64,000 nt of DNA from an uncultured Candidatus Saccharibacteria bacterium (GCA_964461505.1 CAYWUW010000001.1:33792-97791); one strand, 5' to 3'. Shown: positions 28,059 to 45,458, counted from the stretch's first letter. Program-made: numbers and translations. Notes: a model not told the origin generated them from the letters alone.

Positions 28059-29051
28059 ATGCGCCGAGTTTTACGAAGAGCAAAGATTAAGGATAAAGAT
28101 TTGGGTGAGCTAGAATCTGATTTTAAATCACAGTGGGTAAGTTCTGCTAAAAGGCGCTTGGTAGATTCTGCCAAGATGCAAAAAGAGTTGCCAAGCGCTG
28201 GAGGTTGGCGGCCAAACTTAAGTATTAATAATCTAGAACAAGAAAAAAAACGTGAAGTTGAACGAGAAATAAAAGAAAAGAATAAGCTTAGAAGGCGGCG
28301 CAAAAATACCAGAACGATTTTGAAGTTAGCTTTGTTTGGACTGCTGTTTTTGGCGGTATATTTTGGGCTGTGTTGGGGTTCTAAAAGAATGATTTATAGT
28401 GATTCTTTGGGTGGTGAGAGTGCTTATTCTAGCCAGATGCGAGAAGTTGCACAAAATGCAGTAAGGGGCGGTTTTTTAGGAAATGTTAAGCCGAGTTTTG
28501 GTAGATATCAAAAAATTGAAAAGGGGATTATGGGGCAGCATCCAGAGGTAGATGGTGTGGCGGTCAAATTTAATTTTTGGAAGATGGCAACCGAAGTTAA
28601 GCTTAAGATTGAGGTTCCGATTATCAGTTGGCAGATTTCAGCGGGTAGAACTGCCTATGTGAATGAAAAAGGGGAAGTGTTTGAACCTCCGGCTAGTTTG
28701 GTAGCGCTATTTAAGCCTCTAGAAATTGCTGGAACGGGCCTAGGGGCGACTACGGATGATTCTTTACCGGTGAATAGTGATAAATTAAGGTGGATTGTGG
28801 CTGTTGTTCCAGAGATTAGAAATGCAGGAATTGAGGCTAGCAAAGTGAACGTAGCGGGGGAGAGCTTAAAGAGCGTTGAGGTTGAGCTAAGCAGTGGTGT
28901 TAGGTTAATTTTTTCAACCGAAGAGGATCCGGTGCGGAGTGGAGTAGCGGCGGCAAAATCTGTTAAATATTTAGAGCGAACTCGTCAGGGCGGGCTAGGG
29001 GGGCTTAGTTATATCGATGTTAGTAACCCGGATAGGGTGGTTTATAAGTAG
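28059..29051 (+). CDS. ftsQ: FtsQ/DivIB-like cell-division protein
   Basis: basic N-terminus, single TM helix, extracytoplasmic domain; position after murG. Confidence 0.5.
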   Translation: MRRVLRRAKIKDKDLGELESDFKSQWVSSAKRRLVDSAKMQKELPSAGGWRPNLSINNLEQEKKREVEREIKEKNKLRRRRKNTRTILKLALFGLLFLAVYFGLCWGSKRMIYSDSLGGESAYSSQMREVAQNAVRGGFLGNVKPSFGRYQKIEKGIMGQHPEVDGVAVKFNFWKMATEVKLKIEVPIISWQISAGRTAYVNEKGEVFEPPASLVALFKPLEIAGTGLGATTDDSLPVNSDKLRWIVAVVPEIRNAGIEASKVNVAGESLKSVEVELSSGVRLIFSTEEDPVRSGVAAAKSVKYLERTRQGGLGGLSYIDVSNPDRVVYK

Positions 29052-29537
29052 GGCTCGGTTTTTTAAGGTTTGTGGAGAGAATGCTGGATCTGCTTTAGGG
29101 AATTTTGTTTTTGACTACTCTCCACTTCTCTGAGTACTATTTTTGTACTAGAATCTTTTATTGGTGTGGTTATATTCTTGCTGTTGGTTGCTTTGATAGT
29201 TAGGTTTTATATTTTTTTAAGCTTAATGTGATGGTGTAGGGTAGCGTATCTGAAAAATATACTTTGCATATTAAAAAACTATAAGTCAAATATTTAAAAC
29301 AGATATATTAAGCTTAAGTCAAATATATTATACAACTACTTATTGTGGAAAAGTCAATAATACATTTAGGCTTATTCCACGCTTTTAACAGGGGGATTGT
29401 AGCTTTGGTAAAGCACGCTCTCTCTGTGTGTGTGGTATCGTTTGTTAGTAATCTTCTTGTTAGTAATTTTATAGGGAATTTGCTCTTCTCCCCTGTAGAG
29501 AAGAGGTGTACTGAATCATCTGGTTGGAGATATTGCT

Positions 29538-29565
29538 AAGTCGTAAAATATACATTGTGCGACGT
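29538..29565. other. dif-like 11-6-11 recombinase-type site (candidate)
   Basis: AAGTCGTAAAA-TATACA-TTGTGCGACGT. Arms are 7/9 inverted repeats, and the central TGTATA equals the E. coli dif spacer. Lies in the gap where gene orientation converges. Confidence 0.4.
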
Positions 29566-29769
29566 TTGATATTAAACTTAAGTTCTATTCAATGTGACTG
29601 TTCTACTCTAGATTCTTTTGTGAGTTTTTTGTTTTTAGTTCTGCAATTTGTAATTTTTTATTGCTACTCTTTCTGTAGTTAAACTATTAAGCTTAAGTTG
29701 GCATGGGAATTGCCTACTTTGGGAGTTTGCAGATTTGCCTGCTTTGTTAAGCTTAAGTATTCAAGTGTA

Positions 29770-30461
29770 CTATGTTTGTACTGGTGTAATCAACTTTCCT
29801 ATAAGATGTGCACTTGCTAGCGCTGCCCTATCTGGGCGCGTGAAGGATTGGGTGGACCATTTATATGGATTCTGATTGTTTATATTCAAAAATCCTATTC
29901 GAAATAAATGCTGTAAAACTGGGGCTGCAGTTAATTTTAGTGCTATAGCTTCGGTATCATTCGAGTTAATGTATAAATACCACCAAGTTAGGAGTGTGTC
30001 GCCAGCTAAGCCTAGTGGGCTAGCCTCGTTCTGCCAAATGTTTTTTGCTAGCTGAGTCCTTAGGCTTCTATCAAGTGCGCTTACTGATTCTGGCGGCTCA
30101 TTTTGATTGATGTAGAGGGCAACACTTCTCCAATCGAAGAAGCCGTAAGGATCTTTAAAGCGGTCGTGGGTTTGTTCTAATTGTGAAGGTTTGGCTTTTG
30201 TGGCTACTTTTGCACGAGTTGCGCTTAAAGTTCCATCCAGATTAACCTTAAAACCTGCTGGAGTGTAGGTGGTTTGTTCGCCTTCGTAAGATCCTAAGCT
30301 TAAGTGCCCGACCCCCCCCAATGCATAACTTTCAGGGTTCGATCAGCATTGATTTGCAGGCTATCTGGATCTATGCCTGGTACGTTGAATTCTAGAAGGC
30401 TGATCTTGCCCTCGGTGCGTTCGGCGGCCTGTATAATAGGGATTGTTCCGAGTCGTTCCAT
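29770..30461 (-). pseudogene. Hsp20-like N-terminus plus unknown domain, split by a frameshift at a G8 tract
   Basis: ATG 30461 ORF (MERLGT..EFNVPGIDPDSLQINADRTLKV) stops 53 codons in. The 183-aa ORF continues in another frame across C8 at 30312-30319. Confidence 0.6.
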
Positions 30462-30492
30462 CTTTGATATTAAGTTTTAAGCTTAGCGATAT

Positions 30493-31551
30493 TTATTCGG
30501 CGAGTTGGAAGGTGGCGGTTGCGACGCGCTTGAATTTTGGTTTGGATTGAAGATTTAAGACGATGGTTGTTTCGCGAACTTGGCGATATCTTAATACTCC
30601 ACGAATAATCTCATCTCTGTGCATCGGTTTGTTATCGTTATCTTTCAAAACTTTTTCGATAACATCTTCAACTGTTCCTTCGATGTGTCCCCATTCTTTA
30701 AGTGCGTATCGGCCGCGTCCAACTAAAACGTAGCGTGCGTCGCGAATAAGTTCGTTGTGGGTGGCTTGAATTGTAAAGTTACGCTTGGCAAAGGTTGGAT
30801 CGTTTTGAATGGCTTGGTAAATTTCGCTAAAGTGCATTGGTTCCTTTTTCTCGCTTAAAACGATGTAGATTTTATCTTTAATGCTTTTAGGATTAACAGA
30901 AGACCAGCTTTTTAGACCCCAGAGGCCTTTTCTTTCGTAGGTGTTGTTAGAAACAAGAATTTTGGTTTCGATTTCTTCTTCTGATTCTTTGAGGTTGTAA
31001 GACTTTTTAAGTTCAGAGATAGAAATTGGCTTTTTGTTTTCGGTTAGAACATTGACGATGCGGTCAACCTCTTTTAGAGCTTCGGATGGGCTTTTGTAGT
31101 GATTGGCTAAAACAGCGCTAGAGGTGTAATTATCAGATTCTTCGATAAGCATTAGGCGGCTTGAAATAAGTGCGATGAATGAGTTTTGGGCTATAACTTC
31201 TTTGCTCTCGCCTTCTGAGGCTAGAACTCCGAGTTGCTTGATGGCGCAGATTCCGCCTCTTGATTCGATTAATTTGGCAAGTTTATCTTCGTATGCTGCA
31301 AAGCCTTCTAATTTGCCTTCTTCGGCTTTAACTTGGAGGCGGATGACGATTCCTTTTTCTAGCTGACGGATGCGTTCTCTGGTTACGCCGTATTCTTTGC
31401 CGATTGCATCAAGAGTCTTTTTTTTGCCGCCGAGGCCAAATCTACCGGTGATGATGTCGCGTTCGCGATCTTTGTATAAATCTTCTAAGATGCTGCTTAC
31501 GAGTTTGGTCAACTCGGTTTTTTGTGCTTCGGTGTTATTTTTTTCTGCCAT
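30493..31551 (-). CDS. sigma-70 region-4-like HTH protein with C-terminal HARE-HTH-like domain
   Basis: GKEYGVTRERIRQLEKGIVIRL resembles sigma region 4.2; C-terminal IYIVLSEKKEPMHFSEIYQAI resembles HARE-HTH. Confidence 0.55.
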   Translation of the reverse strand: MAEKNNTEAQKTELTKLVSSILEDLYKDRERDIITGRFGLGGKKKTLDAIGKEYGVTRERIRQLEKGIVIRLQVKAEEGKLEGFAAYEDKLAKLIESRGGICAIKQLGVLASEGESKEVIAQNSFIALISSRLMLIEESDNYTSSAVLANHYKSPSEALKEVDRIVNVLTENKKPISISELKKSYNLKESEEEIETKILVSNNTYERKGLWGLKSWSSVNPKSIKDKIYIVLSEKKEPMHFSEIYQAIQNDPTFAKRNFTIQATHNELIRDARYVLVGRGRYALKEWGHIEGTVEDVIEKVLKDNDNKPMHRDEIIRGVLRYRQVRETTIVLNLQSKPKFKRVATATFQLAE

Positions 31552-31842
31552 AGTTTGATTACTCTCTTTTCTCTGCTCTGTTCTTTTTTGCTAAACTTAA
31601 TTTATCTAGCCAGAAATGCCAATTTACTTATGTTAATATAGACATCTCACTCACCTTTGTTGTATTAATATTATCATAGATCTTGCTGATAGTGCAAGCT
31701 CTTTGGCACATAATGTAAAAAATATCACTATTTTGAAGAGTTTAAGCTTAGAACATGCCAGTTCCCTGCTCTTTTGAGTTTGATTATGTAGCATCGTTCA
31801 GAATGCGTGTAGGTGAGCTGGGGCTATAGAGTATCTAGAGTA

Positions 31843-31876
31843 CCCTCACCTAGCCTCTCCCTAGGAGGGAGAGGGA
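31843..31876 (+). repeat. hairpin repeat family G
   Basis: CCCTCACCTAGCCTCTCCCTAGGAGGGAGAGGGA; near-copy inside a CDS at 40516. Confidence 0.75.
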
Positions 31877-31908
31877 TGGATTCCGGTTTCTCGGTGATAA
31901 GAGGCCTT

Positions 31909-34194
31909 TTATTTTTTGGTGGGGAATCTTCTTCTTTTGGGTTTTGCTGGGGCTTTGGCTAGAATTTCTTTGGCTTGTTCTTCGGTGATGTCTTTTGGTT
32001 CTAAATCTTTAGGAATCTTGGCGTTCTTCTTAAGCTTAACGTCTTTAATGTATGGCCCGTATGGTCCGTTAATAATTTGAATATTTCCCCAATCGGCAAC
32101 GTATTTGTTTTTTTCTTTTTCGATGTTTTCTTCAATTAGCGGAATTGCTTCTTCTAGCGTGATGGCGTGCATATCGTGGCCTTTGATGCTGATGAATTTT
32201 CCGGCGTGCATTAAATATGGGCCGAAACGTCCGATATTAACCTTAACCTCTTCTTTTTGGAATTCACCGATGGTTTTGGGCAACTTAAACATCTCTAGAG
32301 CTTCTTCTAGCGTTACATCAGAAATCTGCCTTCCGGCTGGCATGTTGGCAAAAGCTGGTTTTTCTTCATCTTCGACAGTTCCAATTTGGAGCATCGGGCC
32401 AAAACGGCCAATTCTGGCAATAACTGGCTTTTTAGTTTTTGGATCTTCACCCAGGATTCTTTGGCCAACATCGCTACGCTTAACATCGCTTAAGCCTTCG
32501 ACATCTTTATGAAAGCCTTTGTAAAAATCTGCAATAACGTTTTGCCATTTGTGTTTGCCTTCGGCAATTTGATCAAATTTGGCTTCCATTTCGGCGGTAA
32601 ATTGGTAATCCATAATGTCGGGCATGTTCTTGTTTAAAAAATCTGTTACAACGATGGCGGTATCCGTTGGAAAGAGCTTGCCTCTATCTGCGCCAATGTT
32701 AATAGTTTCGATTTCTTCGCTAACCTTATCTTTATTAAGCTTAAGGAATTTAAGTTCAGTCGGAGTTCCTTCTTTATCGGCGCGTTCGATGTAGCCTCTA
32801 TTTTGGATTGTGCTAAGCGTTGGGGCATAAGTTGAAGGTCGGCCGATGCCGAGTTCTTCTAATTTTTTGATTAAGCTGGCCTCTGTAAAGCGGCCGGGTT
32901 TTTTGCCAAAATTGAGGTGAGCTTCGGCTTCATCTAGCTTAACCTCATCTCCAGAACTTAAGTTTGGCAAAATGCTGTCAGAGCCGCTTCTGCCGTAAGC
33001 TTTGATAAAACCTTCAAAAACTAGAACTTCTCCGTTGGCTTCAAAAACTTCGCTAGAGTTAGGGCTCTTAAGTTTAATAACTGTTTTTTCTAGTTTTGCT
33101 GGAGCCATTTGGCTGGCGACAGTTCTTCTCCAAATTAAGTTGTAGAGCCTTTTTTGGTATTCATCGGCTCCGGCGAGTTCTTTTGTAAAATCTGTTGGGC
33201 GGATGGCTTCGTGGGCTTCTTGAGCTCCGGCGCTTTTAGCTTTATAGCGCGTGATGTTTAAATATTCTGGGCCGAATTTTTTAGGAATTAGATCTTCTAG
33301 GTTTTTGATAGCTTGTTCGCTTAAGTTTAGGCTGTCGGTACGCATGTAGGTAATGAGGCCGGCTTCGTAGAGCCTTTGAGCGTTGCTCATCGTATTTTTG
33401 GGGCTCATGCCTAAAGTTTGGCTGGCAGCTTGTTGTAAACTAGAGGTTGTAAACGGAGCTGCTGGAGTTTTTTTGCCTGGTTTTTGAGTTATATCGGTAA
33501 CTTGAAGAGAACCTCCGGCGATAGCCTCTAAAATATTTCTGGCTTCTTTAATTGTTTTGAGTTTTTTGCTTAAAACGGCTTCGAACTGTTCTTTTTTGGC
33601 TGAGACGTTAAGCTTAATTTTGTAGTACTCTTCAGTTTGGTGATTCTTGATTTCTTCTTCGCGTTCAACTACCAGCCTAACAGCAACACTTTGAACTCGG
33701 CCCGCGCTTAGGCCTTTGGTAATTTTGCGCTGGAGCATTGGGCTGAGTTCGTAGCCGACAATTCTATCTAGAATCCTTCTAGCCTGTTGGGCATCAACTA
33801 GCTTTTCATCAATATCTCTGGGGTTTTTAACAGCGTGCTGGATGGCGCTTTCTGTTATTTCGTGAAAAACGATTCTTCTGCGATTCTCGGGCTTAAGTTT
33901 AAGAATTTCGGCCAAGTGCCAAGAAATAGCCTCCCCTTCTCTATCTTCATCGCTTGCCAACCAAACTAAATCTACATTTTTGGCAGCACGTTTTAGTTCG
34001 GCAACGGTCTTCTTTTTTTCTGGAGAAACCTCGTAGTTGGGCTCAAAATTATTGGCGATATCTATATTCATGCCTTTTGAAGGCAGATCTCGAATATGCC
34101 CAAAGCTAGATTTAACCTCAAAATCGCTTCCTAAATATTTTTGGATAGTTTTTGCTTTAGCGGGGCTTTCGACGATAACTAGGTTTTTGGGCAT
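31909..34194 (-). CDS. topA: DNA topoisomerase I
   Basis: MPKNLVIVESPAKAKTIQKYLG Toprim start, YMRTDS active-site region. Confidence 0.93.
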   Translation of the reverse strand: MPKNLVIVESPAKAKTIQKYLGSDFEVKSSFGHIRDLPSKGMNIDIANNFEPNYEVSPEKKKTVAELKRAAKNVDLVWLASDEDREGEAISWHLAEILKLKPENRRRIVFHEITESAIQHAVKNPRDIDEKLVDAQQARRILDRIVGYELSPMLQRKITKGLSAGRVQSVAVRLVVEREEEIKNHQTEEYYKIKLNVSAKKEQFEAVLSKKLKTIKEARNILEAIAGGSLQVTDITQKPGKKTPAAPFTTSSLQQAASQTLGMSPKNTMSNAQRLYEAGLITYMRTDSLNLSEQAIKNLEDLIPKKFGPEYLNITRYKAKSAGAQEAHEAIRPTDFTKELAGADEYQKRLYNLIWRRTVASQMAPAKLEKTVIKLKSPNSSEVFEANGEVLVFEGFIKAYGRSGSDSILPNLSSGDEVKLDEAEAHLNFGKKPGRFTEASLIKKLEELGIGRPSTYAPTLSTIQNRGYIERADKEGTPTELKFLKLNKDKVSEEIETINIGADRGKLFPTDTAIVVTDFLNKNMPDIMDYQFTAEMEAKFDQIAEGKHKWQNVIADFYKGFHKDVEGLSDVKRSDVGQRILGEDPKTKKPVIARIGRFGPMLQIGTVEDEEKPAFANMPAGRQISDVTLEEALEMFKLPKTIGEFQKEEVKVNIGRFGPYLMHAGKFISIKGHDMHAITLEEAIPLIEENIEKEKNKYVADWGNIQIINGPYGPYIKDVKLKKNAKIPKDLEPKDITEEQAKEILAKAPAKPKRRRFPTKK

Positions 34195-34291
34195 CTATAA
34201 ATATAAAAAATTCTAACAGTGTATACGGATAATAATAGATTAAGCTTAATTTAGTCAAGCTTTTTAAAATCTAAAACTAAAAAATGTTTTT

Positions 34292-34300
34292 TGTTATAAT
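34292..34300 (+). promoter_or_regulatory. extended -10 box TGTTATAAT
   Basis: followed by AAGCTTAAGCTTAA; upstream of ATG 34358. Confidence 0.45.
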
Positions 34301-34357
34301 AAGCTTAAGCTTAAAATAAGTTTAGCGCAAAAGTACAGTTAATTATAGAAAAGTTTT

Positions 34358-35572
34358 ATGCAGCCCGAAGATAATCTAACTCCAAATGTTAATTCTAGCT
34401 CTAATACCAACCCGGTTCCGGCTGCAGATTCGGCGGGTGGGCAGGCTCCGATAGTTCCAAATTTGGTTCCAGATCAAACTAACTTAACAAGTGCACCGAT
34501 GGCTGATTCGGCTGGGGCAAGCTCTGCTGATGCTGTGGGCGGTTATGCTGCTTCTGTTCAGAATGGTTCTATGCAAGATGCTTCTACTCAAAACACATCT
34601 ACTCAAAATGCTTTTGTTCAAGGTTCTGTCAGCGATATGAACTTTAACACCGGGCAAGCTCCGGTTGATAGTGGAGGCGCGAATGATTTAATGGGGGCTG
34701 GAGTGATTTCTCCAACGGATACGGGAAGTTTTATGCAAGAACCTACCCCTGCGCCAGAACCTGCCAAAAAAGGTGGGGCAAAAAAGATTCTGGCCTTGGT
34801 TGGTGTAGTTGTGGTTGTGTTGGTTCTTGTTCTTGGGGCGGCTTTGTTCTATTTAAAATCTCAAAGAACTAGCGCACAAACCTTAAAAACTTTTAGTGAT
34901 TCAACTTCTGCTTTAACAGATGAGGGAACGGATCTTTCTTCTGCGATTTCTAAAACAACTTATGCGAGTTCTACTAGCACCGAAAGTGTAGATTTAGAAG
35001 CTGATGTTAAGGCTTTTGATGAGGCGGTTACAAAGTTTGAAGATGCAACGAAGAATTTAAAATCTGATAAAAAGGCTCTAAAAGATGCGGCGTTTGCGTA
35101 TATTACAGAGATAAAATCTTACAAAAAAGAGGTGATATCTTTAGCGGTAGATAATGCTAAAATTCAAGCGGTAATGAAGAATGCAAGCGGCGAGCAGTTT
35201 GCGGCTACATCTGGTGCTGCAGCTTTTGCAACCGAGGCAGATAGAGTTTCGGCCATTTATATAAAGGCGGCGCAAGATCTAAAAGATTTAAGCTTAAGCA
35301 ACGAAACGGCCAAGCAGTTAAGAGATTTATATATTGCCTTTTTAGGCGAAATGCAAACATCTTTAAAAAATATGAAAGAGGCATCAAATACAGGTAATAG
35401 AACCGCTTTGCTGGAGGAAAGTTCTAAAGTTAGCGAACTTGCTAGATCACATCCGGCAATTGCTAAAGAGAATGAGGTAGAAGAAACTTTGAGTATCAAT
35501 GGTGATGCTTATAAAAAGCTAGAAGATGCCCGCGCTAAGCTTAATGAAGAGATTGCGAAGGTTAGGTATTAG
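34358..35572 (+). CDS. membrane-anchored protein with low-complexity N-terminus, hypothetical
   Basis: Ser/Asn/Gln-rich N-terminus, one TM helix (ILALVGVVVVVLVLVLGAALFY), helical C-terminus. Confidence 0.5.
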   Translation: MQPEDNLTPNVNSSSNTNPVPAADSAGGQAPIVPNLVPDQTNLTSAPMADSAGASSADAVGGYAASVQNGSMQDASTQNTSTQNAFVQGSVSDMNFNTGQAPVDSGGANDLMGAGVISPTDTGSFMQEPTPAPEPAKKGGAKKILALVGVVVVVLVLVLGAALFYLKSQRTSAQTLKTFSDSTSALTDEGTDLSSAISKTTYASSTSTESVDLEADVKAFDEAVTKFEDATKNLKSDKKALKDAAFAYITEIKSYKKEVISLAVDNAKIQAVMKNASGEQFAATSGAAAFATEADRVSAIYIKAAQDLKDLSLSNETAKQLRDLYIAFLGEMQTSLKNMKEASNTGNRTALLEESSKVSELARSHPAIAKENEVEETLSINGDAYKKLEDARAKLNEEIAKVRY

Positions 35573-35577
35573 CAGCT

Positions 35578-36441
35578 TTAGGCGATATCCCATTGGCCAG
35601 GAGCGATTTGTTGGATAACTCCTTTAATTTCGAGCATGGTTAAAGTAGAAGAAAATTCGGTGGTGCTCTGCCCTGTTTGGAGGTGTAGTTCATCAGCGGA
35701 ATGAGTTCCGGTTTTAATAAGCTTAAGTAGCTCGGCTTCGTTATGATTTTCTGGTTGATACTGCTTTAGTTTGCTGGCTTTAGTGTTCATGCCGAGTGCT
35801 TCAAGAACATCTGCGGCAGATGTTACTGGCACAGCCCCTTGCTTAATTAAGTTGTTTGGGCCGGCGCTCATGGGGTTATCGATGGCGCCTGGAACAGCGA
35901 GAACAAGACGGTTTTGTTCTAGTGCAAATTGAGCTGTAATTAGAGTTCCGCTTTTAGCTGCACATTCTACAATTAAAACAGCCTCGCTGATTCCGCTTTG
36001 AATTCGGTTTCTGGCAATAAAATTTTGCTTGAGTGGAGGCATGCCTTGTTCGTATTCTGTAATGATGGTTCCGCCGTTCAAAAGGATGCGCTGGGCTAAA
36101 TTAAGGTTAGTAACTGGGTAGATCTGATCGATTCCGCTTGCCATGATGGCGATAGTTTTGCCACCGGCATCAAGAGCTGCTTTGTGAGCTAAGCCGTCGA
36201 TTCCGATGGCTAGGCCGCTGACGATGGCTATGCCGGAGGCGGCGAGTTCTTGCACAAGCTGATTAACAATCTTAATTCCATATCTGGTTGGCTTGCGAGA
36301 ACCTACTACAGTAAGGTATTTTTCGGTTGGGTTAAGCTTAGCTCCCTTTAACCATAAGCGTTGTGGTGGATAAGCTATTTCTTTCAGTAGTGTTGGATAT
36401 TCTAGTGATTTGTTTGTAATTTGGCGGATTGGTATTGGCAT
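35578..36441 (-). CDS. dprA: DNA-processing protein DprA (Smf)
   Basis: VVGSRKPTRYG, SGLAIGIDGLAHKAAL, VPGAIDNPMSAGPNNLI. Confidence 0.88.
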   Translation of the reverse strand: MPIPIRQITNKSLEYPTLLKEIAYPPQRLWLKGAKLNPTEKYLTVVGSRKPTRYGIKIVNQLVQELAASGIAIVSGLAIGIDGLAHKAALDAGGKTIAIMASGIDQIYPVTNLNLAQRILLNGGTIITEYEQGMPPLKQNFIARNRIQSGISEAVLIVECAAKSGTLITAQFALEQNRLVLAVPGAIDNPMSAGPNNLIKQGAVPVTSAADVLEALGMNTKASKLKQYQPENHNEAELLKLIKTGTHSADELHLQTGQSTTEFSSTLTMLEIKGVIQQIAPGQWDIA

Positions 36442-36902
36442 ATCTTATGGAAGGGTTGACTTTCTAGCAATATCTATGATAAGATGGTTAACTGTAGACA
36501 AGCTTATAGCTAAGTTTGTTATTCTATGTACTTTATAAATCTATAAATTTAATAGAATTTATAGAATGTTAGGGCGTTTTTTTGTTTTTGCAAGCAGCGA
36601 GCGGCTCTTTATAAAAAGTGATACTTTTTTCAAGAAGGTTTACTACCCTCCACCTCTTGATATTCGAAAGTTATTCTTTGAAGCTTAAAAACTATTTTAT
36701 AGTTTTTAGCAGCCGTTTGCTAGTTCTAATTTAACAAAAAGGCGCACTAACCCCTTCAATTTTGAAGCGTTTCTTATGAGTGGTTTAGGGGTTTTTAAAT
36801 AGTGATTTTTTAATTTAGTCGCAGCCATTTAGGGCACTCGTTTTGTAAGATTTTTATGCTTTATTTTTTATTGAGGGGTGCTATGACCCTCTTGGATCAG
36901 CC

Positions 36903-36935
36903 TGAATAATTCGATGCCCACCCTCGAATTATTCA
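36903..36935. repeat. perfect 12-bp inverted repeat (TGAATAATTCGA-9-TCGAATTATTCA)
   Basis: seen directly; lies 3' of pth in a 525-bp gap with no convincing ORF. Confidence 0.7.
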
Positions 36936-36966
36936 TCAAAAGGCCCCAGGAGGGTTTTTTGCGTTT

Positions 36967-37593
36967 TTAGATTAAGCTTACGGCTTCTTGAATTAGTTTA
37001 TTAAGCTTAGACTGCTCTTCTTTATTAAACTTGCCGAGTACAAAATCTGCGGCGTCCATTTTTGTGAGCAGCTCATTTTTGATGCCGAATCTTATTCTTT
37101 TATAATCATTGGAATTAAGCTTAGCAGAAACATCTTTGAGGCCGTTATGAGTGCTTTTGCCTTCTCCGCCGCTTTTAAGCTTAATAGTTCCGAATTCTAA
37201 ATCTAGCTCATCATGCACGACGGTGATGGCTGTGCTTGGGAGGTTGTAGAAATCTGTTATGGCTCTTAGGCTTTTGCCGCTTAAGTTCATTAAAGTAGTT
37301 GGCTTAAGAAGGATTATCTTTTGGCCGTTTTCTATTTTTTGAGAGATGAGGCCGAAGAACTTTTTTTCTTCTTTAAAATCTGGAAAGTTGTTAAGCTTAG
37401 CGTAATTGTCTAAAATTTCGAAGCCGATGTTGTGGCGAGTTGTTTTGTATTTGTCTCCAATGTTTCCGAGGCCAACGATAAGCTTAATGTAGCCATCGTT
37501 ATTTTTAGAAATGTTTTTTTGGATTTCGGGCTTGCTGTTAATATCGCTCCAGCGGAGCTTAAAGTTAAATGCAGATCTTGAAACTATTGCCAT
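36967..37593 (-). CDS. pth: peptidyl-tRNA hydrolase
   Basis: LIVGLGNIGDKYKTTRHNIGF, VVHDELDL; N-terminal extension of about 35 aa, so the start is uncertain. Confidence 0.85.
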   Translation of the reverse strand: MAIVSRSAFNFKLRWSDINSKPEIQKNISKNNDGYIKLIVGLGNIGDKYKTTRHNIGFEILDNYAKLNNFPDFKEEKKFFGLISQKIENGQKIILLKPTTLMNLSGKSLRAITDFYNLPSTAITVVHDELDLEFGTIKLKSGGEGKSTHNGLKDVSAKLNSNDYKRIRFGIKNELLTKMDAADFVLGKFNKEEQSKLNKLIQEAVSLI

Positions 37594-37718
37594 GTTAAGC
37601 TTAGTATAACAGAGAAGAATCTTTCGTCATTCAGAGTGAACGTAGTGAGCGAAGAATTTAGTAGAATAAAGTTTTTTACTTTTTTGATTGGGGATGACGT
37701 GTGTTCTTGTGGATAGTT

Positions 37719-39125
37719 TTATGGCTTCCTTCTTTTTTTGAGGGCGTCACGGTAGGTGGTCTTCTTTTTTAGGCCTCTAACTTCTTTTTGGATGAACCAG
37801 ATTTCGATTGGGGTTCCGGTAAAGTTGAACTTTTCTCTTAAAGATTTTTCTAGATAGCGTTTGTAGCTCCAGTGGATTTTGCGGGTGTGGTTTCCAAAAA
37901 GTTGAAAGCTTGGGTAGGGAGTGTCGGTTTCTTGTACGGCGTAATTAAGCTTAGGGTGAAGGTTCCCTTTGGCGGTGGGTGGTTCGTGGTTGTAAACCGC
38001 CTCTCGCAGCCACTTGTTGAGTTCAGTAGTTTTGATTTTTTTACTACGCTCTGCTTGCGCGCTTAAGCTTAGTTCAATTATTTTGTTCAGGTTTTTATCT
38101 TCTTTAGAACTGGTAAAAATCAGTGGAGCCCACGGCACAAATTGGAGTTCACTTTGCAGTTTTGCGGCTACGTAATCTGCGCTAAAGGCATCTTTATCTT
38201 CAAAAGTATCCCACTTGCTAACGGCGATGATTAAGCCGCGGTTGGCATCTTTAACCATGCCGATAATTTTTTGATCCATGCCGGTGGCAAGTTCGTTGAT
38301 ATCTATCAAAACTATGCAAACGTCGGCTTGTTGAATGGCTCTTAAAGATTTTATGACGCTGAATTTTTCTAGGCCGTGTTCTATTTTGCCGGGTTTGCGA
38401 ATTCCGGCGGTATCTAAAAGTTCGATGTTTTTGCCAAAATATTTAATTCGGATTGAGTTTGTGTCGCGGGTGGTTCCGGCAACATCGGCAACTACGGCTT
38501 GTTGCTTTTTGGCAAGGGCATTAAAAATGGAACTTTTGCCAACGTTGGGGCGGCCTAAAAAGGCTATAACGAGGTCAGAATCTTCATACTTAAGCTTAGC
38601 GGGAACGGTTTGGACGATGCGATCAAGTAGTTCCTCTACTCCGCTTTTGTGAATTGCAGAGGTAAAATAGATTTCTGGAATTCCGAGCCGGCGAAACCGG
38701 TTTTGTTCTTCTTGAAAACCCTCTTCTTTTAAGCGCGCGGGGGCTTTAAGGGTGTCGGATTTGTTGATAATTAGGATAACTTCTTTGCCGCTTCTTCTGG
38801 CGAGTTTGGCAACTTTTTCATCTTCTGCAGAGATTATATTTCCGGCCTCTACTACTACTAAGATTAAATCGGCAGATTGAGAGGCATCTTGAATTTGTTC
38901 TTGGATGGTGGTTTCGAATTCATCGGCGGCTTTTTTGAGCCCGGCGGTATCTGCTAGCCAAAACTTTTTTTTGTTGTGCTCGCAAACGGCAAAAACGCTA
39001 TCTCGGGTGGTTCCGCTTTCTCTGGCTACGATAGAGCGTGCATAACCAAGCATGGCGTTAGTTAGGCTGCTTTTGCCAACGTTAGTTCTGCCAACTATGG
39101 CTACAATTGGGAGGTTTTCGCGCAT
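37719..39125 (-). CDS. der: ribosome-associated GTPase Der (EngA)
   Basis: two G domains (GRTNVGKSSL, GRPNVGKSSI) plus a KH-like C-terminus. Confidence 0.92.
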   Translation of the reverse strand: MRENLPIVAIVGRTNVGKSSLTNAMLGYARSIVARESGTTRDSVFAVCEHNKKKFWLADTAGLKKAADEFETTIQEQIQDASQSADLILVVVEAGNIISAEDEKVAKLARRSGKEVILIINKSDTLKAPARLKEEGFQEEQNRFRRLGIPEIYFTSAIHKSGVEELLDRIVQTVPAKLKYEDSDLVIAFLGRPNVGKSSIFNALAKKQQAVVADVAGTTRDTNSIRIKYFGKNIELLDTAGIRKPGKIEHGLEKFSVIKSLRAIQQADVCIVLIDINELATGMDQKIIGMVKDANRGLIIAVSKWDTFEDKDAFSADYVAAKLQSELQFVPWAPLIFTSSKEDKNLNKIIELSLSAQAERSKKIKTTELNKWLREAVYNHEPPTAKGNLHPKLNYAVQETDTPYPSFQLFGNHTRKIHWSYKRYLEKSLREKFNFTGTPIEIWFIQKEVRGLKKKTTYRDALKKRRKP

Positions 39126-39198
39126 CTCTAAGTTTAATTATTCCTTAAGCTTAGTATAGCATTAAAACAGTGGTAAGTTAAACATCTGAACAAAAAAG

Positions 39199-39207
39199 TT
39201 GTATAAT
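39199..39207 (+). promoter_or_regulatory. -10 box TTGTATAAT
   Basis: 10 nt before ATG 39218; the ORF-track start 39206 overlaps the box itself. Confidence 0.45.
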
Positions 39208-39217
39208 GATTGTTAAG

Positions 39218-39523
39218 ATGAATATTCCTCCAGGCTTTAAACTTTGGCTACTGTTTAAGCATAGCGAACAAGAAAGGCCAGCTTGTTTGGGTTCGGTGCT
39301 TTCTCAGAAGGTTGGTGCTAGAGCTGTTTGCGATGCTTGTGCTACTCGTAAAGATAATCTGGAGCCTAATGGCTGGGTTGTTGTTCCTGCGAGAGAGAAA
39401 GCTGATCCAGGATCTGAAAAAGCGGGTTTAAAAACATGGGGAGGCTTTGCAGTGTGCTGCCATTTTACCGAAAGAATAGATGTTTTGCCAGGCATGACAG
39501 AGTTTGACTTAAAAGAGGATTAA
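39218..39523 (+). CDS. small Cys-containing protein, hypothetical
   Basis: 101 aa, 5 Cys, GC-richer than surroundings. Confidence 0.4.
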   Translation: MNIPPGFKLWLLFKHSEQERPACLGSVLSQKVGARAVCDACATRKDNLEPNGWVVVPAREKADPGSEKAGLKTWGGFAVCCHFTERIDVLPGMTEFDLKED

Positions 39524-39600
39524 GCTTAAGGTTGCTAAATCTTAAAAATAGGAGTATGCTTTTTGGTTAAAACTCTATAAAATTCAGAAAGGAATTATTT

Positions 39601-40038
39601 ATGCCCAATAAACGTAAAGGTAAAGATTGCCACGGAACATATCTAGAGGATGGTGGTGTGCTCGATAAGATTGGTCGCGGCGTAGGCAGCCTTGTACGTG
39701 ATACAGGAGAAGGAGTTCAGCGTGGGCTTACTGCTACTTTGCGTGGTTTGGGTGATGCGGCACATGGGTTGGCGGATGGACTAGATGGAATAGAGAGTGA
39801 ACATGCGAGAGAGATTTGTGTTGTGGTCACGGTTAGGGGCGTAGAAGCAAAAATAAGAACTCTGGCTAACGGTGATCCAGATAGAGTCGCAGGCAGTATT
39901 AATCAACTTTCTTGCCCGGAAGAACGAGCCGCTAGATGTGGTCGGAGCTGTATGAGGACTTTGGGAGGTAACTCAGGCTTTCCGACGGATAGATTTGGTT
40001 CAGCCTATGGCCTTTCTAAAGCCGATGACACAATGTAA
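39601..40038 (+). CDS. small Gly/Arg-rich Cys-containing protein, hypothetical
   Basis: 145 aa, AAAGGA 7 nt upstream of the ATG, no recognised domain. Confidence 0.45.
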   Translation: MPNKRKGKDCHGTYLEDGGVLDKIGRGVGSLVRDTGEGVQRGLTATLRGLGDAAHGLADGLDGIESEHAREICVVVTVRGVEAKIRTLANGDPDRVAGSINQLSCPEERAARCGRSCMRTLGGNSGFPTDRFGSAYGLSKADDTM

Positions 40039-40065
40039 GTATCACGCTAAGCTTAAGGTATTGAT

Positions 40066-40353
40066 ATGAGTGAGTTTTGTAATTTTGGTCAAGACGTTAG
40101 AAAGGTTACCGAAGAAGGTTCCAGAACTGTTGGTGCTACGGTGCGTGTAGAACAGGCTGGAGTGATGGGCTTAACTTCTTGTGAGTTTGATGAGGTAACG
40201 GGTAAGCATTTGAGTACAACGCACCCTGTTGAGGTGCGTTACGGCATTTTTGAGGTTAGCGGAATTATTCCTGGGGTTGTTGAAGACGTTAAAGTTTCTT
40301 GCCCGAGGCTTAGAAAGTGTGATTCTTGCCCTAATAGAAAAAAGCTAAATTAG
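40066..40353 (+). CDS. small Cys-containing protein, hypothetical
   Basis: 95 aa, C-terminal CPRLRKCDSCP; stop overlaps the convergent pseudouridine synthase stop. Confidence 0.4.
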   Translation: MSEFCNFGQDVRKVTEEGSRTVGATVRVEQAGVMGLTSCEFDEVTGKHLSTTHPVEVRYGIFEVSGIIPGVVEDVKVSCPRLRKCDSCPNRKKLN

Positions 40354-41051
40354 TTTATATTAAGCTTAACTTCTTTAACAGCTCCTTCTTGTAGATCTTC
40401 TAGCTTAAATGGGCCGAGCTGGGTGCGCTGCAGGAATGTTACTTTGTAGCCGAGTTCGTAGAAGGTGCGGCGGATTTGGCGGTTGCGGCCTTCTGTGAGT
40501 TGGATTTCTAAATACCCCTCACCTAGCCTCTCCCGAGGGAGAGGGATAATTTGCTGGAATTTGGAGGGGCGAGAATCTCCGATTTGAATTCCGGCTTTAA
40601 GCTTAATTAAATCGGCTTGTTCTAGTTTTTTATTAAGCTTAACAAGGTAGGTTTTTGTTTTTCCGGAAGATGGGTGGATGAGTTGGTTGAGATATTCTCC
40701 GTCATTGGTAAGCAAGATTAAGCCGCAAGAATCTTTATCTAGCCGGCCGGCAATGTTTAAGTTTAGCTTTTGGTATTTTTTGGGCAAGAATTCATAAACA
40801 GTTGGAGCTCCGCCTTGCGAGACTTTTGAAGATAGGTAGCCAACCGGTTTGTTAAGCAGCAAGTAGGTTTTTTCTAAATTGCTAAGCTTAATAATTTTAT
40901 TCTGATACTCTACTTTATCTTGTTCTGGCTCTACTCTATCTCCGAGTTTGGCGATTTGGCCGCCTAGCTTAATTTTTTTTGCGGCAATTAGATCATCGGC
41001 AGATCTTCTAGAGATGTTTAAGCTTAGCGATAGGAACTTGTTGAGGCGCAT
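40350..41051 (-). CDS. pseudouridine synthase, RsuA/RluB family
   Basis: S4 domain (MRLNKFLS), GRLDKDSCGLILLTNDG, EGRNRQIRR. Confidence 0.88.
   Translation of the reverse strand: MRLNKFLSLSLNISRRSADDLIAAKKIKLGGQIAKLGDRVEPEQDKVEYQNKIIKLSNLEKTYLLLNKPVGYLSSKVSQGGAPTVYEFLPKKYQKLNLNIAGRLDKDSCGLILLTNDGEYLNQLIHPSSGKTKTYLVKLNKKLEQADLIKLKAGIQIGDSRPSKFQQIIPLPRERLGEGYLEIQLTEGRNRQIRRTFYELGYKVTFLQRTQLGPFKLEDLQEGAVKEVKLNIN
40516..40547 (+). repeat. hairpin repeat family G copy inside a CDS
   Basis: CCCCTCACCTAGCCTCTCCCGAGGGAGAGGGA; read in frame on the minus strand as part of IPLPRERLGEGY. Confidence 0.7.
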
Positions 41052-41138
41052 ATGTTTTATAAAGTATAGCAGGATCTTGGCTCCCTCACTTGTAGGGAGG
41101 GATTGAGGGAGGGTTCTTTTTATAACCCCTTACCTAAT

Positions 41139-42854
41139 TTAGGAAATCCAGATGAGGGTGAGGGCGAGATCTTCGTAACTTAAGTTTAGGCCAGATTTAA
41201 GCGCAGCGGCTTGAAGATCTTTTAGAATGTAGCGAGAGGCGAGATCTAATTTTTTGTTCTGTTGAATAATCTTTTTTAAAGAATTAATTTGCTTGGCGGG
41301 TGGTTTTAGGTTGCTAAACTTAAGAAGTTCTTTTTTGGGCTGTGGAGATTCGTGAATGTATCTAGCTAAATGGTTGATGGCGGTTTGGGTTTTAATCTGG
41401 CGTTCTTGGCAAACCTCTGCAATGCTTTTGCCCGAAAGAATAAGCTTAACGGTTGTTTTGTGGCTATCTTTTTGGCCTTTGCCACCAATCTTTTTTTGAA
41501 TCGGTTGGTTTTGGATTGGTTCGGCTTTTAAAGTTCCGCCAAATTTTTTGATGGATTTTTCAATATTTTTGGTGATTTCTGCTGGCTTAAGTTTAGTGAA
41601 TCTTGCGGAGGCGAGATCTGAATGTTTGGAAAGTTGCTGATTAATTTTAAGAATGCTCGGATTGATTTGGAGCGACATCTGGTTAAATTCTTCTAGAAAT
41701 AAGCCTTCTAAACTTTTAACGCGCGAAAGTGCAACGTAGCCCATTCCATATTCAAAAACTTTGCCCAGGTTGATGTAGGCGGAATCTAGGCTCATGCCTT
41801 GGCTTTTGTGAATGGTGATGGCCCAGGCTAGGCGCAAAGGAATTTGTTCGATGCTGGCAAGATCTTGGCCTTTTTCATCTTGGATAGACCAGGTTTCGGG
41901 TTCTGCAATAATTAACTTTTCGTCAAGAGTTTGGATGATCGGCCAGTTGGTTTCTTTTTTAAAATTAATAACTTTGCCGCGAGTTCCGTTAACGTAGCGT
42001 CCGGATTGATCGTTTTTAACAAACATAACTTCGGCTCCAACTTTAAGCTTAAGTTCTTGTGGGGCTAGGCAAGATTTGAGCAGGCTTTGCACAAGGGCGA
42101 GTTTGCCGGAATGCGTGGTTGTGTAAAGCTCTTCTTTAGAATTAAGCTTAGTAAGTTCGATATCGTTGATAAAATCGACATCTTGATTGTGGCTGTAGAG
42201 TTTGGTTGTGGCAAGAGCGTGGGTTGTAAAAATTCTGTTGTTTAAAGTTTTGATATTATCTGCTGTGGGCTGCCCTGCTCTAATGTTATTTAGAATTAAG
42301 CTTAGTGCGTCGGTTTGGTTTTGGCGGTGTTGTTCTTGCAGGTAACAGATAACTGGTTTAAGTTCGCTCCAGGCCCCAGAATGAACGACCATTTGCAGTT
42401 TGCTGCCTCTTTCTTTAGAGATTGGTGGGAGCTGGAAGAGATCTCCACACAAAATAACTTGTAAGCCACCGAATGGGAGTTCACTTTCCTTCATATGTTG
42501 GCAAATTAAGTTTAGATTATCAAAAAAGCTGGCGCTTAGCATTGAGATTTCGTCGATAATTAGAATTTTGGTTTGGTTGAAGCGCTTTTGGAGTTCTTTC
42601 TTCTTGGAAAGTTTTTCGAGATCTGCTTTGGTTATCTGATCTTTAATGCCGATTCCAGACCAGGAATGAATGGTGGTTCCGCCGATGTGGGTGGCGGCGA
42701 TTCCGGTGGAGGCGGTGATGGCGATGCCAATGCGGTGTTCTTTAGCCCAAGTGATGAATTTGTTTAGGGTGTAGGTTTTGCCGGAACCTGCCTGGCCTGT
42801 TAAAAAGATGTTGTAGCCCATCTGCATGATGGGCAGAGCTTGGGATTGGAGCAT
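41139..42854 (-). CDS. PIF1/RecD-like ATP-dependent DNA helicase with C-terminal HTH region
   Basis: LTGQAGSGKT, IIDEISM, CGDLFQLPP, ITIHKSQGMS. Confidence 0.75.
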   Translation of the reverse strand: MLQSQALPIMQMGYNIFLTGQAGSGKTYTLNKFITWAKEHRIGIAITASTGIAATHIGGTTIHSWSGIGIKDQITKADLEKLSKKKELQKRFNQTKILIIDEISMLSASFFDNLNLICQHMKESELPFGGLQVILCGDLFQLPPISKERGSKLQMVVHSGAWSELKPVICYLQEQHRQNQTDALSLILNNIRAGQPTADNIKTLNNRIFTTHALATTKLYSHNQDVDFINDIELTKLNSKEELYTTTHSGKLALVQSLLKSCLAPQELKLKVGAEVMFVKNDQSGRYVNGTRGKVINFKKETNWPIIQTLDEKLIIAEPETWSIQDEKGQDLASIEQIPLRLAWAITIHKSQGMSLDSAYINLGKVFEYGMGYVALSRVKSLEGLFLEEFNQMSLQINPSILKINQQLSKHSDLASARFTKLKPAEITKNIEKSIKKFGGTLKAEPIQNQPIQKKIGGKGQKDSHKTTVKLILSGKSIAEVCQERQIKTQTAINHLARYIHESPQPKKELLKFSNLKPPAKQINSLKKIIQQNKKLDLASRYILKDLQAAALKSGLNLSYEDLALTLIWIS

Positions 42855-42903
42855 AGTTAAGTTTAAGTATAGCGGAAAGAGGCTGGTTAATCTGAGGTTA
42901 AGT

Positions 42904-43299
42904 TTAGGAATCTTTTAAGGTGAGTAGAGCTTTGATTGCCTGATCTTTATTGGTGTACTGAACAAAGATGTGGTCATGGAAGTATGCGGCTATGACATTG
43001 GCAGATATACCTTCTTCTGTTAGTTTTGTAGAAAGAGCTGCGGTTAAGCCAACGAGTTCTAGTGATGTGTGAACTTTTATGCTGAGTTTAGCAAAAGGTC
43101 CATCATAGGGAATCTTACTTTCTTCTAGAAAGTCTACGGTGGCTACAATTGTTTGCCCTTCGTCTTCCCAAAATGTTGCAATGATTTCTTTTGAATCTGT
43201 ATGGTTGCCGGCATTGGTAGTGGTGAATCCATATTGAATATGGTCACAGTCTACTTCTAGTGAATTGAGTACTTCTTGAAGGTTGGTGTTCCCTGCCAT
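42904..43299 (-). CDS. ACT-domain-like small protein
   Basis: 131 aa from ATG 43299; the upstream part of the 206-aa ORF runs through tRNA-Glu and is discarded. Confidence 0.45.
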   Translation of the reverse strand: MAGNTNLQEVLNSLEVDCDHIQYGFTTTNAGNHTDSKEIIATFWEDEGQTIVATVDFLEESKIPYDGPFAKLSIKVHTSLELVGLTAALSTKLTEEGISANVIAAYFHDHIFVQYTNKDQAIKALLTLKDS

Positions 43300-43319
43300 C
43301 TTACTTCTAAGCTTAAGCT

Positions 43320-43394
43320 TGGTGACCCTACCGGGAATCGAACCCGGATTGCCAGATTGAGAATCTGGTGTCCTAACCGTTAGACGATAGGGCC
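43320..43394 (-). tRNA. tRNA-Glu (anticodon CUC), CCA encoded
   Basis: GGCCCTATCGTCTAACGGTTAGGACACCAGATTCTCAATCTGG..GGTTCGATTCCCGGTAGGGTCACCA folds as a cloverleaf. Confidence 0.88.
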
Positions 43395-43611
43395 AGTGAA
43401 ATGAGAATGCGGTTTTTGTGCTTGCACAGAAAACCATTTTTGAATGAGCGGGTCTATCTTGTAGAGATAGGGCCAGCGAAATGAGAAATATGGGCCCCGG
43501 ATCGGAGCCCGGGGCTGCGGACATCTCCTTCGGAGATGTCCTTGATTATATCAAAAACGGGGTGAGATCTGCTAAGCTTAAGGTAATAAAAAGGTGGTAA
43601 AGATTTTCTTT

Positions 43612-43986
43612 ATGGAATACAACAAGCTTTCAGAAGCAGAAAAGTATGTAATTGAAGATAAAGGGACGGAGGCGCCGTTTTCTGGTGAGTATGATGGTTT
43701 TTATCCTCCAGAAGGAGTTTTTGTGTGCAGAAGGTGTAACGCTCCCCTGTTTGATGCAAAGTTTAAGTTTAAATCTGACTGTGGTTGGCCGAGCTTTGAT
43801 GAGTTTATTCCAGGAGCGGTTCAAGAAGATCTGGATGCTGATGGCCGAAGAACAGAAATTACTTCTGCAACTTGCGGTGGGCATCTGGGGCATGTTTTTC
43901 GGGGTGAAAATCTGACTGATAAAAATACAAGGCACTGTGTAAATAGTTTGAGTATTAAATTTGTTCCGAAAAATGAAGAAGAGTAA
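43612..43986 (+). CDS. msrB: peptide-methionine (R)-S-oxide reductase MsrB
   Basis: CRRCNAPLF, CGWPSF, CGGHLGHVF, RHCVNS. Confidence 0.88.
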   Translation: MEYNKLSEAEKYVIEDKGTEAPFSGEYDGFYPPEGVFVCRRCNAPLFDAKFKFKSDCGWPSFDEFIPGAVQEDLDADGRRTEITSATCGGHLGHVFRGENLTDKNTRHCVNSLSIKFVPKNEEE

Positions 43987-44875
43987 ACAGCAGTTTGGGG
44001 TTAGTTTTAGCTTAAAGCAGTGTCGAGGCTTTGAGGTTGATCCGAAGGCGACGCTTAAGTTCTTGCTTAAAGAAGTCGGCTTGCGACGTTTTAGGCTGAT
44101 GAGTTACTGGGATGAACATGAACTCTCTTGCGGTGAATATAACTTTAAAGAACTAGACTGGCAGTTTGATTTGATTGAAGAATATGGAGGCGAAGTATCT
44201 TTATGTTTAGGAGTTCGGCAACCTCGGTGGCCAGAAAATCATCTTCCGCAGTGGGTACTAAGCTTAAGTTCTAGTGAGTTTAAAAAAGAACTGATTAAGT
44301 TTAATACAAAAGTTGTTCAAAGGTATAAAAAGCGAGAATCTTTAGTTAGTTGGCAGTTAGAAAATGAGGCTTTAAACCGTAGTTTTGGGGTTAATGGCAA
44401 TTTTGATAGAAAGCGTTTAAGGGCTGAGTTTGCTAAGCTTAAGGTTCTTGATTCTGGCCATCCGGTAATTATGAGCACAAGTAATAATTTTGGTTTGCCG
44501 ATTCGGAGGCCGCGTCCGGATATTTTTGGGTTTAGTTTGTACAGAGTTCAATACAAAAAGGGCGGCTATAGTTATTCTAAAATGCCGGTTCTGCATTATA
44601 AGCTTAGGGTGCTTTGTATCTTTTTGATTACTGGTAGAAGAACTTTTATTCATGAGTTGCAGGCGGAACCGTGGGGGCCAAGCTCTACTCAAGATTTAAG
44701 TAAATCTGAACAAGAAGAATCTATGAGTATACAACAGCTTAAGCTTAATATTGAATTTGCTAAAAAAACAAACCTCTTTCCTATTGACCTTTGGGGTGGT
44801 GAATGGTGGTATTGGCGAAAACTTCACGGCGATGATAGATTTTGGGTAGAAGTTAAGAGGATGGTAAAAGCTTAA
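43973..44875 (+). CDS. TIM-barrel glycoside-hydrolase-like protein
   Basis: WQLENEALN (NE acid/base-like) and a cellulase-like layout; start uncertain (43961 or 43973); overlaps the msrB end. Confidence 0.4.
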   Translation: MKKSKQQFGVSFSLKQCRGFEVDPKATLKFLLKEVGLRRFRLMSYWDEHELSCGEYNFKELDWQFDLIEEYGGEVSLCLGVRQPRWPENHLPQWVLSLSSSEFKKELIKFNTKVVQRYKKRESLVSWQLENEALNRSFGVNGNFDRKRLRAEFAKLKVLDSGHPVIMSTSNNFGLPIRRPRPDIFGFSLYRVQYKKGGYSYSKMPVLHYKLRVLCIFLITGRRTFIHELQAEPWGPSSTQDLSKSEQEESMSIQQLKLNIEFAKKTNLFPIDLWGGEWWYWRKLHGDDRFWVEVKRMVKA

Positions 44876-45448: not shown

Positions 45449-45458
45449 CTAGTTATAT

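Follow-up and report, generated by a model that had tools for sequence, protein, structure and literature searches.

Does the AT-rich gap on which two oppositely oriented blocks of genes converge, in the chromosome of an uncultured Candidatus Saccharibacteria bacterium, hold the site at which chromosome dimers are resolved? The question was raised by a stretch of 64,000 nucleotides (GCA_964461505.1 CAYWUW010000001.1:33792-97791; hereafter the window, i.e., the whole stretch analyzed), in which a first-pass annotation had noticed a dif-like sequence and had proposed a candidate replication terminus. The window corresponds to G000:C1:33792-97791, where G000 is a 702-kb genome in 16 contigs, estimated to be 87% complete, and C1 is its 157-kb contig carrying the site. 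Based on comparative sequence analysis, we consider it highly probable that the 28-bp element at 29538..29565 of the window is a chromosomal dif site, belonging to a predicted single-recombinase Xer system common to much of the Patescibacteria (Candidate Phyla Radiation, CPR). This reading draws on the expected architecture of the element, its single copy, its conserved arms around a free spacer, its position where genes converge, and the presence of both an Xer recombinase and FtsK.

Architecture of the candidate dif site

The element, to which no strand is assigned, reads AAGTCGTAAAA-TATACA-TTGTGCGACGT (28-mer AAGTCGTAAAATATACATTGTGCGACGT). Within it, the left arm GTCGTAAAA (29540-29548) and the right arm TTGTGCGAC (29555-29563) are inverted repeats at 7/9 positions around the hexamer TATACA (29549-29554), and two more semi-conserved bases lie on each side of this 9-6-9 core. 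On the reverse strand, the site becomes ACGTCGCACAA-TGTATA-TTTTACGACTT and matches E. coli dif at 6/11 + 6/6 + 5/11 positions. Coordinates, arm symmetry, spacer and the extent of the match to E. coli dif were all reproduced as the first-pass annotation had given them. The site lies in an AT-rich gap of 718 bp between convergent genes (29052..29769), which also holds the accessory module described below and has a GC content of 32.9%, compared to a window average of 41.1% and an intergenic average of 37.8%.

The 28-mer occurs once in the window, even with 3 mismatches tolerated, and once in the 702-kb genome, so that the uniqueness check suggested along with the original proposal came out in favor of a dif site. 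A dif-like arm was not found elsewhere in the window, which led us to discard a relation to the tRNA-Arg cassette array (49.4-53.5 kb) that had been considered. The symmetry itself carries little weight. In a census of 9-6-9 inverted repeats with at least 7/9 matches, 121 were counted in the window vs. 77-110 in shuffles; the palindrome alone is not beyond chance, and its significance comes only from comparative data.

Conservation of the core

When 41 relatives were searched with the 718-bp gap, only the 24-28 bp of the site itself matched, with 92-100% identity, in 28 genomes from many families. The aligned core can be written as GTCG[T/C]AAAATATACATTGT[G/A]CGAC and is embedded in unrelated flanks; the information content is 1.0-2.0 bits per position within the 24-bp core and collapses outside of it. 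The 24-bp core pattern GTCG[T/C]AAAA-N6-TTGT[G/A]CGAC was detected in 275 of 301 genomes of the order (229 of the 246 high-quality ones), almost always in a single copy, and the reversed pattern, used as a control, gave 0 matches in the same order-level survey. At the next levels, 222 of 251 genomes of the class and 198 of 301 genomes of the phylum, i.e., about two thirds, contain the pattern. Conservation in relatives, which the first-pass annotation had recommended to check, is therefore found at the level of order, class and phylum.

Arms and center of the core behave differently. The arms are fixed, whereas the central hexamer varies by clade (TATACA, GATATA, GGTACA, GATACA, CATACA and others), as expected of a recombinase core site. 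In other classes of the phylum, the left arm is GTCGCATAA, which we take to be the classical XerC-arm motif TCGCATAA of proteobacterial dif.

Besides the canonical site, additional dif-like sites, whose arms are perfectly symmetrical (GTCGCACAA-N6-TTGTRCGAC), are found in some relatives. Six such symmetrical sites accompany the canonical one in G459 (contigs C5, C6, C7 and C9), one extra site was found in G248 (C1:740237-740260), and two sites each are present in G023, G084, G238, G255 and G274. These extra sites may be elements or modules exploiting Xer.

The recombinase and FtsK

A dif site presupposes a recombinase, and the search for xer-type genes named in the original proposal returned exactly one Xer-type tyrosine recombinase in G000, plus FtsK; together with uniqueness and conservation, this makes three of the four proposed checks with a favorable outcome. 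The recombinase, encoded on contig C5, is 323 amino acids long and contains the Pfam domains Phage_integrase and N-terminal SAM-like. Its motifs GLRVSEL, HTLRHSF, GHSNI and QVYTH supply the R, H-x-x-R, H and Y residues, and the catalytic K is also readable. Against the NCBIfam models for XerC, XerD and XerA (NF040815), the protein scored 240, 232 and 225.1 bits, with cut-offs of 335, 330 and 220 bits, respectively; thus, only the XerA cut-off was passed, and narrowly. The NF040815 model was built for archaea and integron-type integrases, and passing it indicates resemblance, not proof of orthology. Scores were 110 bits vs. XerS and 53 bits vs. the XerH structure, and the closest solved relative is XerA of Pyrococcus abyssi (PDB 4a8e).

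Across the order, 242 of 246 high-quality genomes encode at least one tyrosine recombinase, usually exactly one, and one each was found in two complete genomes of other classes, G512 (843,892 bp) and G534 (1,136,458 bp). With both arms XerC-arm-like and one tyrosine recombinase in most genomes of the order, the earlier suggestion that a near-symmetric site would go with a single-recombinase system fits. In G002, a complete genome of the same genus as G000 (692,464 bp), xer (212 kb) and the site (333 kb) are 121 kb apart; in G000, they are on separate contigs. The FtsK protein of G000 comprises the 4TM membrane anchor, the alpha and motor domains and the gamma winged helix.

By analogy with characterized Xer systems, the following sequence of events can be proposed. 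Homologous recombination between sister chromosomes would leave a dimer, and septal FtsK would pump DNA until two dif copies meet. Four copies of the single Xer-like recombinase would then bind the near-identical arms of both sites, and strands would be exchanged across the 6-bp center via a Holliday junction, by which monomers would be restored. From the same analogy, we infer binding and cleavage by the recombinase, the dependence on FtsK and a role of the accessory boxes.

Gene orientation, GC skew and the terminus

The first-pass annotation had interpreted the switch in gene orientation around the gap as the pattern of a replication terminus. Gene counts around the site were taken from crude open reading frame (ORF) calls. 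They gave 23 genes on the + strand and 3 on the - strand for 55-29051, and 8 on the + strand and 13 on the - strand for 29770-49267. Both the convergent blocks and the AT-rich gap were thus recovered, with strand counts close to the earlier ones. Over the entire 157-kb contig, coding DNA amounts to 48.1 kb (+) and 3.5 kb (-) left of the site and to 32.1 kb (+) and 51.6 kb (-) right of it. The cumulative gene-orientation curve has its global maximum at the site in all three complete genomes analyzed. In G002, the maximum is at 331,424 and the site at 332,926; in G008, a complete genome of the same order, but of a different family (669,327 bp), the respective positions are 226,180 and 226,554; and in G512, the maximum falls on a gene ending at 672,579, with the site following 48 bp on, at 672,627. 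Further, in all of 10 genomes from other classes, the immediate neighbors point toward the site, with a + gene to its left and a - gene to its right; these neighbors differ from those in the order. Within 20 kb of the site in these 10 genomes, 129 genes on the + and 64 on the - strand were counted to the left, and 28 and 160, respectively, to the right.

Relatives with a conventional skew place the motif near the skew switch. In G512, GC skew at third codon positions (GC3 skew; amplitude b = 0.153) has positive values between 237,231 and 651,217 and negative ones in the rest of the genome, with dnaA at 240.8 kb; the site is separated from dnaA by 0.49 of the circle and from this classical GC3-skew switch by 21 kb, or 2.5% of the genome. 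In G534, the site and dnaA are 0.475 of the circle apart. In G008, cumulative GC skew peaks at about 256 kb and bottoms at about 628 kb, dnaA is at 647 kb, and the site is 30 kb from the maximum. For the genus of G000 itself, GC3 skew of G002 was segmented with a two-state model, which returned a high-skew segment at 138,284-343,776 (0.307 vs. 0.119 elsewhere). Near-equivalent left breakpoints, where skew steps up, lie at 132-152 kb, with dnaA at 129.7-131.1 kb, and near-equivalent right breakpoints, where it steps down, lie at 332-344 kb, with the site at 332,926; a second right breakpoint near 431 kb is nearly as good. Thus, superimposed on a constant offset of about 0.21, G002 has replication-type skew steps with the expected polarity both at dnaA and at the site.

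Several observations weigh against a dif site at the terminus. GC skew does not change sign anywhere in the window or the whole contig, and GC3 skew in G002 is positive in every 20-kb bin (0.04-0.38), in + and - genes alike. The gene dnaA, expected roughly opposite by the first-pass annotation, is about 0.29 of the circle away from the site instead. In the order, the arc between dnaA and the site spans 0.22-0.37 of the circle, and is hence not antipodal, in 11 complete genomes (G002, G008, G072, G082, G123, G160, G174, G192, G244, G248 and G271), calculated from genome sizes that were mostly rounded. The orientation-corrected skew switch in G008 is weak and broad (250-360 kb) and starts about 25 kb past the site. 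Polar words resembling FtsK-orienting polar sequences (KOPS) and converging on the site were not significant in G002 once gene orientation was considered; the best words reached p ~1e-6 among about 40,000 tested, with a bias that comes from co-oriented genes. Finally, the locus is syntenic within the order, with an FtsQ-like gene on the left and a gene for a sigma-70 region 4/HARE-HTH protein together with topA on the right. Consequently, the position of the site in the families of the order is not independent evidence; the other classes do count as independent.

How far the missing skew reversal speaks against a terminus depends on whether a reversal can be expected at all. In + strand coordinates, GC3 skew left of the site is 0.47 for + genes and 0.51 for - genes, and right of it 0.36 and 0.45, respectively; the same strand is G-rich on both sides of the site, whatever the direction of the genes. 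G002 has a net excess of G over C of 18,322. G000 is colinear with G002, and all G000 contigs of negative skew map inverted, which means that G000 also has one G-rich strand throughout and, thus, no skew extremum to be found. Such a one-signed skew is specific to the lineage, as G512 and G008 change sign normally. The first-pass annotation had named a GC-skew extremum located elsewhere as a refutation. Skew does not change sign in the contig or in G002, which is a refutation if taken literally, but this criterion is not valid in this genus, as G002 has no skew extremum at all. Refuting a terminus by the lack of a sign change was dropped, since a complete congener lacks a sign change anywhere and relatives of normal skew place the site at the switch.

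Taken together, relatives provide good support for the terminus label of the motif family. For this genus, the label has to be qualified, since its basis is gene orientation plus a skew step, not a skew reversal.

An origin instead of a terminus, suggested by DnaA-box-like TGTGGAAAA motifs and AT-rich repeats in the gap, was also considered and rejected because genes converge on the site. The origin reading is also contradicted by skew steps that are of terminus type at the site and of origin type beside dnaA, and by clusters of DnaA boxes that are weak and, at the G008 site, absent.

On the contig of G000 which carries dnaA (C4:12798), per-gene GC3 skew is equal on both sides of dnaA, and the presumed origin is thus not marked by a step. 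A small inversion or recently acquired DNA could explain why two genes at 18-20 kb of this contig have the opposite skew sign. One-signed skew, steps only at dnaA and dif and an arc of about 0.3 would fit asymmetric replication. It is conceivable, if rather unlikely, that the chromosome in this genus is not replicated symmetrically, but in a one-fork, strand-displacement or rolling-circle-like mode, the products of which would be resolved at dif.

Flanking genes and alternative explanations

The left neighbor of the site is the FtsQ-like gene (28059..29051, + strand, 330 amino acids), the last one of a reduced division and cell wall (dcw) cluster consisting of ftsI, ftsW, murG and the ftsQ-like gene, in which the dcw genes upstream of the FtsQ-like gene were identified by Pfam matches. 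A homologous left neighbor is present in 26 of the 28 genomes of the order, and a distance of 370-550 bp from this gene to the site is kept across the order. To the right, an ORF of 183 amino acids on the - strand precedes the sigma-70 region 4/HARE-HTH gene (30493-31551, - strand) and, beyond it, topA (31909-34194, - strand), both assigned by Pfam. In at least 18 of the 28 genomes, the sigma/HARE gene follows the site on the right, at a distance which varies between 200 and 1450 bp. As a pair, it and topA are the conserved right neighbors across the order. In 3 of the 10 genomes of other classes, the sigma/HARE gene also occurs no more than 5 kb from the site.

Since both flanking genes are conserved across the order, the site might be bound by a protein other than a recombinase, either as an operator for the sigma-r4/HARE-HTH protein or for topA, or as a Ter-like polar fork barrier for the short replichore. 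Of the alternatives, this one survives best, and we still consider it improbable. In its favor, the orientation of the site is fixed relative to the short arc, as its left arm points toward the shorter dnaA arc in 11/11 complete genomes of the order. There is also the partial skew step at the site in G002, and, the replichores being unequal, one fork should arrive first. However, the site is located at the 3′ ends of both neighbors and at the variable distance given above, not in a promoter, and it persists in other classes with different neighbors. Fixed inverted arms, a free spacer of 6 bp and a sequence resembling the XerC arm constitute the core design of tyrosine-recombinase sites, and Ter systems normally have several sites in opposed orientations.

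A second possibility is an RNA element, namely a small-RNA hairpin or a bidirectional terminator. Transcribed, the site could form a 9-bp stem, with one wobble and one mismatch, closed by a loop of 6 nucleotides, and it lies between convergent transcription units. Nevertheless, Rfam had no match in the gap even at E<=10 (in the whole window, the two tRNAs alone were reported at the gathering threshold), and no terminator was found in a scan in which promoter-like matches were at chance level. A conserved T-run after the site is missing, loop and stem are conserved as sequence, and the stop codons of the left and right neighbors are 370-550 and 200-1450 bp away from the site, respectively. The two variable arm positions, 5 and 20, were further compared with respect to RNA covariation, and none was detected. 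All four combinations occur (T-G 14, C-G 7, T-A 3, C-A 3), including the non-pairing C-A, and this free combination speaks for DNA that is bound by a protein and against an RNA stem. An RNA element is, therefore, very unlikely.

Equally little probability is assigned to the site being primarily an attachment site (attB) of integrative elements, without a function in chromosome maintenance. The few genomes with extra dif-like sites (the seven named above) display the pattern expected of Xer-exploiting elements. Such elements, though, target dif itself, so that this explanation presupposes a dif site, and nearly every genome has a single site, including those without a second recombinase. Last, a chance palindrome in an AT-rich spacer, for which the census in the window could be cited, is already refuted by single-copy conservation in hundreds of genomes across the phylum and by the 0 matches of the reversed control, and is left with practically no probability.

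The accessory module left of the site

In addition to the predicted dif core, the gap contains a conserved module to its left. Two boxes of the sequence AGTCAAATAT (29284-29293 and 29317-29326, + strand) precede the core by 256 and 223 bp on its left side. When up to 1 mismatch was tolerated, a AGTCAAATAT box in the same orientation was found between -168 and -337 in genomes of different families (20 of the 28 from the order). This interval contains each of the 27 same-strand matches in those loci of 2-3 kb, compared to about 1 per 16 kb genome-wide. The boxes TAAGTCAAATAT, listed separately by the first-pass annotation, are consequently real and conserved (20/28 genomes). The first box is preceded, at a distance of about 21 bp, by a partner motif, GAAAAATATAC (29252..29262, + strand; consensus GAAAAAACTATAT), which was recognized in most families, as judged by eye in an anchored listing. 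A sigma-70 promoter in the module was considered and rejected, as the spacing between the TTGACT-like and TATAGT-like elements is about 21 bp and, thus, too long. Outside the class, the module was found in 1/10 genomes only.

At 29344..29352 (+ strand), the gap further contains the DnaA-box-like 9-mer TGTGGAAAA, whose reverse complement TTTTCCACA fits TTWTNCACA. In a scan of C1 and C4, TGTGGAWAA had one copy in the 157-kb contig, namely the one in the gap, and one on C4, just upstream of dnaA. The only TGTGGAWAA cluster in the G002 genome adjoins the site, and in G008, there is none beside the site; in several genomes, TGTGGAWAA directly precedes a AGTCAAATAT box.

Four copies of another palindrome, TAAGCTTA, are located at 29218, 29309, 29688 and 29748 of the window. 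This sequence has 1,501 copies in the 702-kb genome vs. 18 expected from base composition, i.e., one per 468 bp, in and out of ORFs, and 331, 23 and 16 copies in G002, G008 and G512, respectively. In this respect, it is similar to highly iterated palindromes or uptake-sequence-like elements.

Comparison with known Xer systems

In surveys of archaea (PMC2958812), bacteria (PMC3025954) and Legionellales (PMC9765430), dif sites were called as non-coding sequences of about 28-30 bp with partial dyad symmetry and low GC content, which are unique, conserved, near the skew shift-point and accompanied by a cognate Xer recombinase. All these properties are found here or in relatives, with the exception of skew proximity in the genus, where it is inapplicable. 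We found no description of such a dif site of CPR/Patescibacteria in the open-access full-text literature; an earlier description elsewhere is possible.

A close parallel may be drawn to XerA/dif of archaea (Cortez et al., 2010; PMC2958812). There, too, a single recombinase is paired with a 28-bp site of near-symmetric 11-bp arms and a 6-bp spacer, and the site is unlinked to xer and was found in silico as a unique, conserved intergenic site at the terminus. The conserved AT-rich flanks of archaeal dif (PMC2958812) can be likened to the accessory module in the CPR. The CPR recombinase resembles XerA in that the XerA cut-off was the only one passed and P. abyssi XerA is its best solved relative. 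Whereas XerA is reported to work independently of FtsK, the CPR host is a bacterium with a full FtsK including gamma; the arm sequence differs as well, and the recombinase scores about equally vs. XerC and XerD.

With the XerCD/dif system (PMC5357621, PMC3025954), the predicted CPR site shares the length of 28 bp, the 11-6-11 layout, the TGTATA hexamer, FtsK and, in relatives of normal skew, proximity to the skew shift-point. In addition, the left arm of the CPR site, (T)CGCA(C/T)AA, resembles the XerC arm. In contrast to XerCD, the CPR system has one recombinase, which misses both equivalog cut-offs, and no XerD arm (TTATGTTAAAT), the second arm being an imperfect copy of the first.

Single-recombinase systems in bacteria are also known from Helicobacter and Campylobacter (XerH/difH) and from streptococci and lactococci (XerS/difSL) (PMC5357621). 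XerH and XerS depend on FtsK, and slightly asymmetric arms can order strand exchange (PMC5357621). Their genes adjoin the site and encode proteins of about 355 amino acids, whereas the CPR xer is distant, its product has 323 amino acids and the scores vs. XerS and XerH are low; moreover, the spacer of difSL is 11 bp, compared to 6 bp here. XerL/dif of the Legionellales is a similar case in being a lineage-wide single-recombinase dif system that was missed by homology surveys (PMC9765430). Its dif was recognized as a sequence that is conserved, palindromic, poor in GC and close to the maximum of cumulative GC skew (PMC9765430). XerL differs in that it forms a divergent clade found via a mobile element, while the CPR recombinase is conventionally Xer-like. 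The plasmid sites cer and psi (PMC5357621) have, like the CPR site, a conserved element about 200 bp to the XerC-arm side of the core. Their accessory sequences, however, bind ArgR, ArcA and PepA and are typical of plasmid sites and not of chromosomal dif.

Implications for Patescibacteria

A large part of bacterial diversity belongs to the Patescibacteria/CPR, and nearly all knowledge of them comes from metagenome-assembled genomes. A single-copy motif such as GTCGYAWAA-N6-TTGTRCGAC would provide a terminus landmark by which assemblies can be oriented and checked, estimates of replication rate anchored and mobile elements exploiting Xer spotted. It would be especially useful where GC skew is uninformative, as in this genus. 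Further, the predicted system would be a phylum-scale case of single-recombinase Xer in which both arms are XerC-like, and it would bear on the evolution of the XerC/XerD pair. The accessory boxes, the unequal arcs between dnaA and dif in the order and the one-signed skew in the genus lead, in turn, to questions about how the chromosomes of minimal cells are replicated and segregated.
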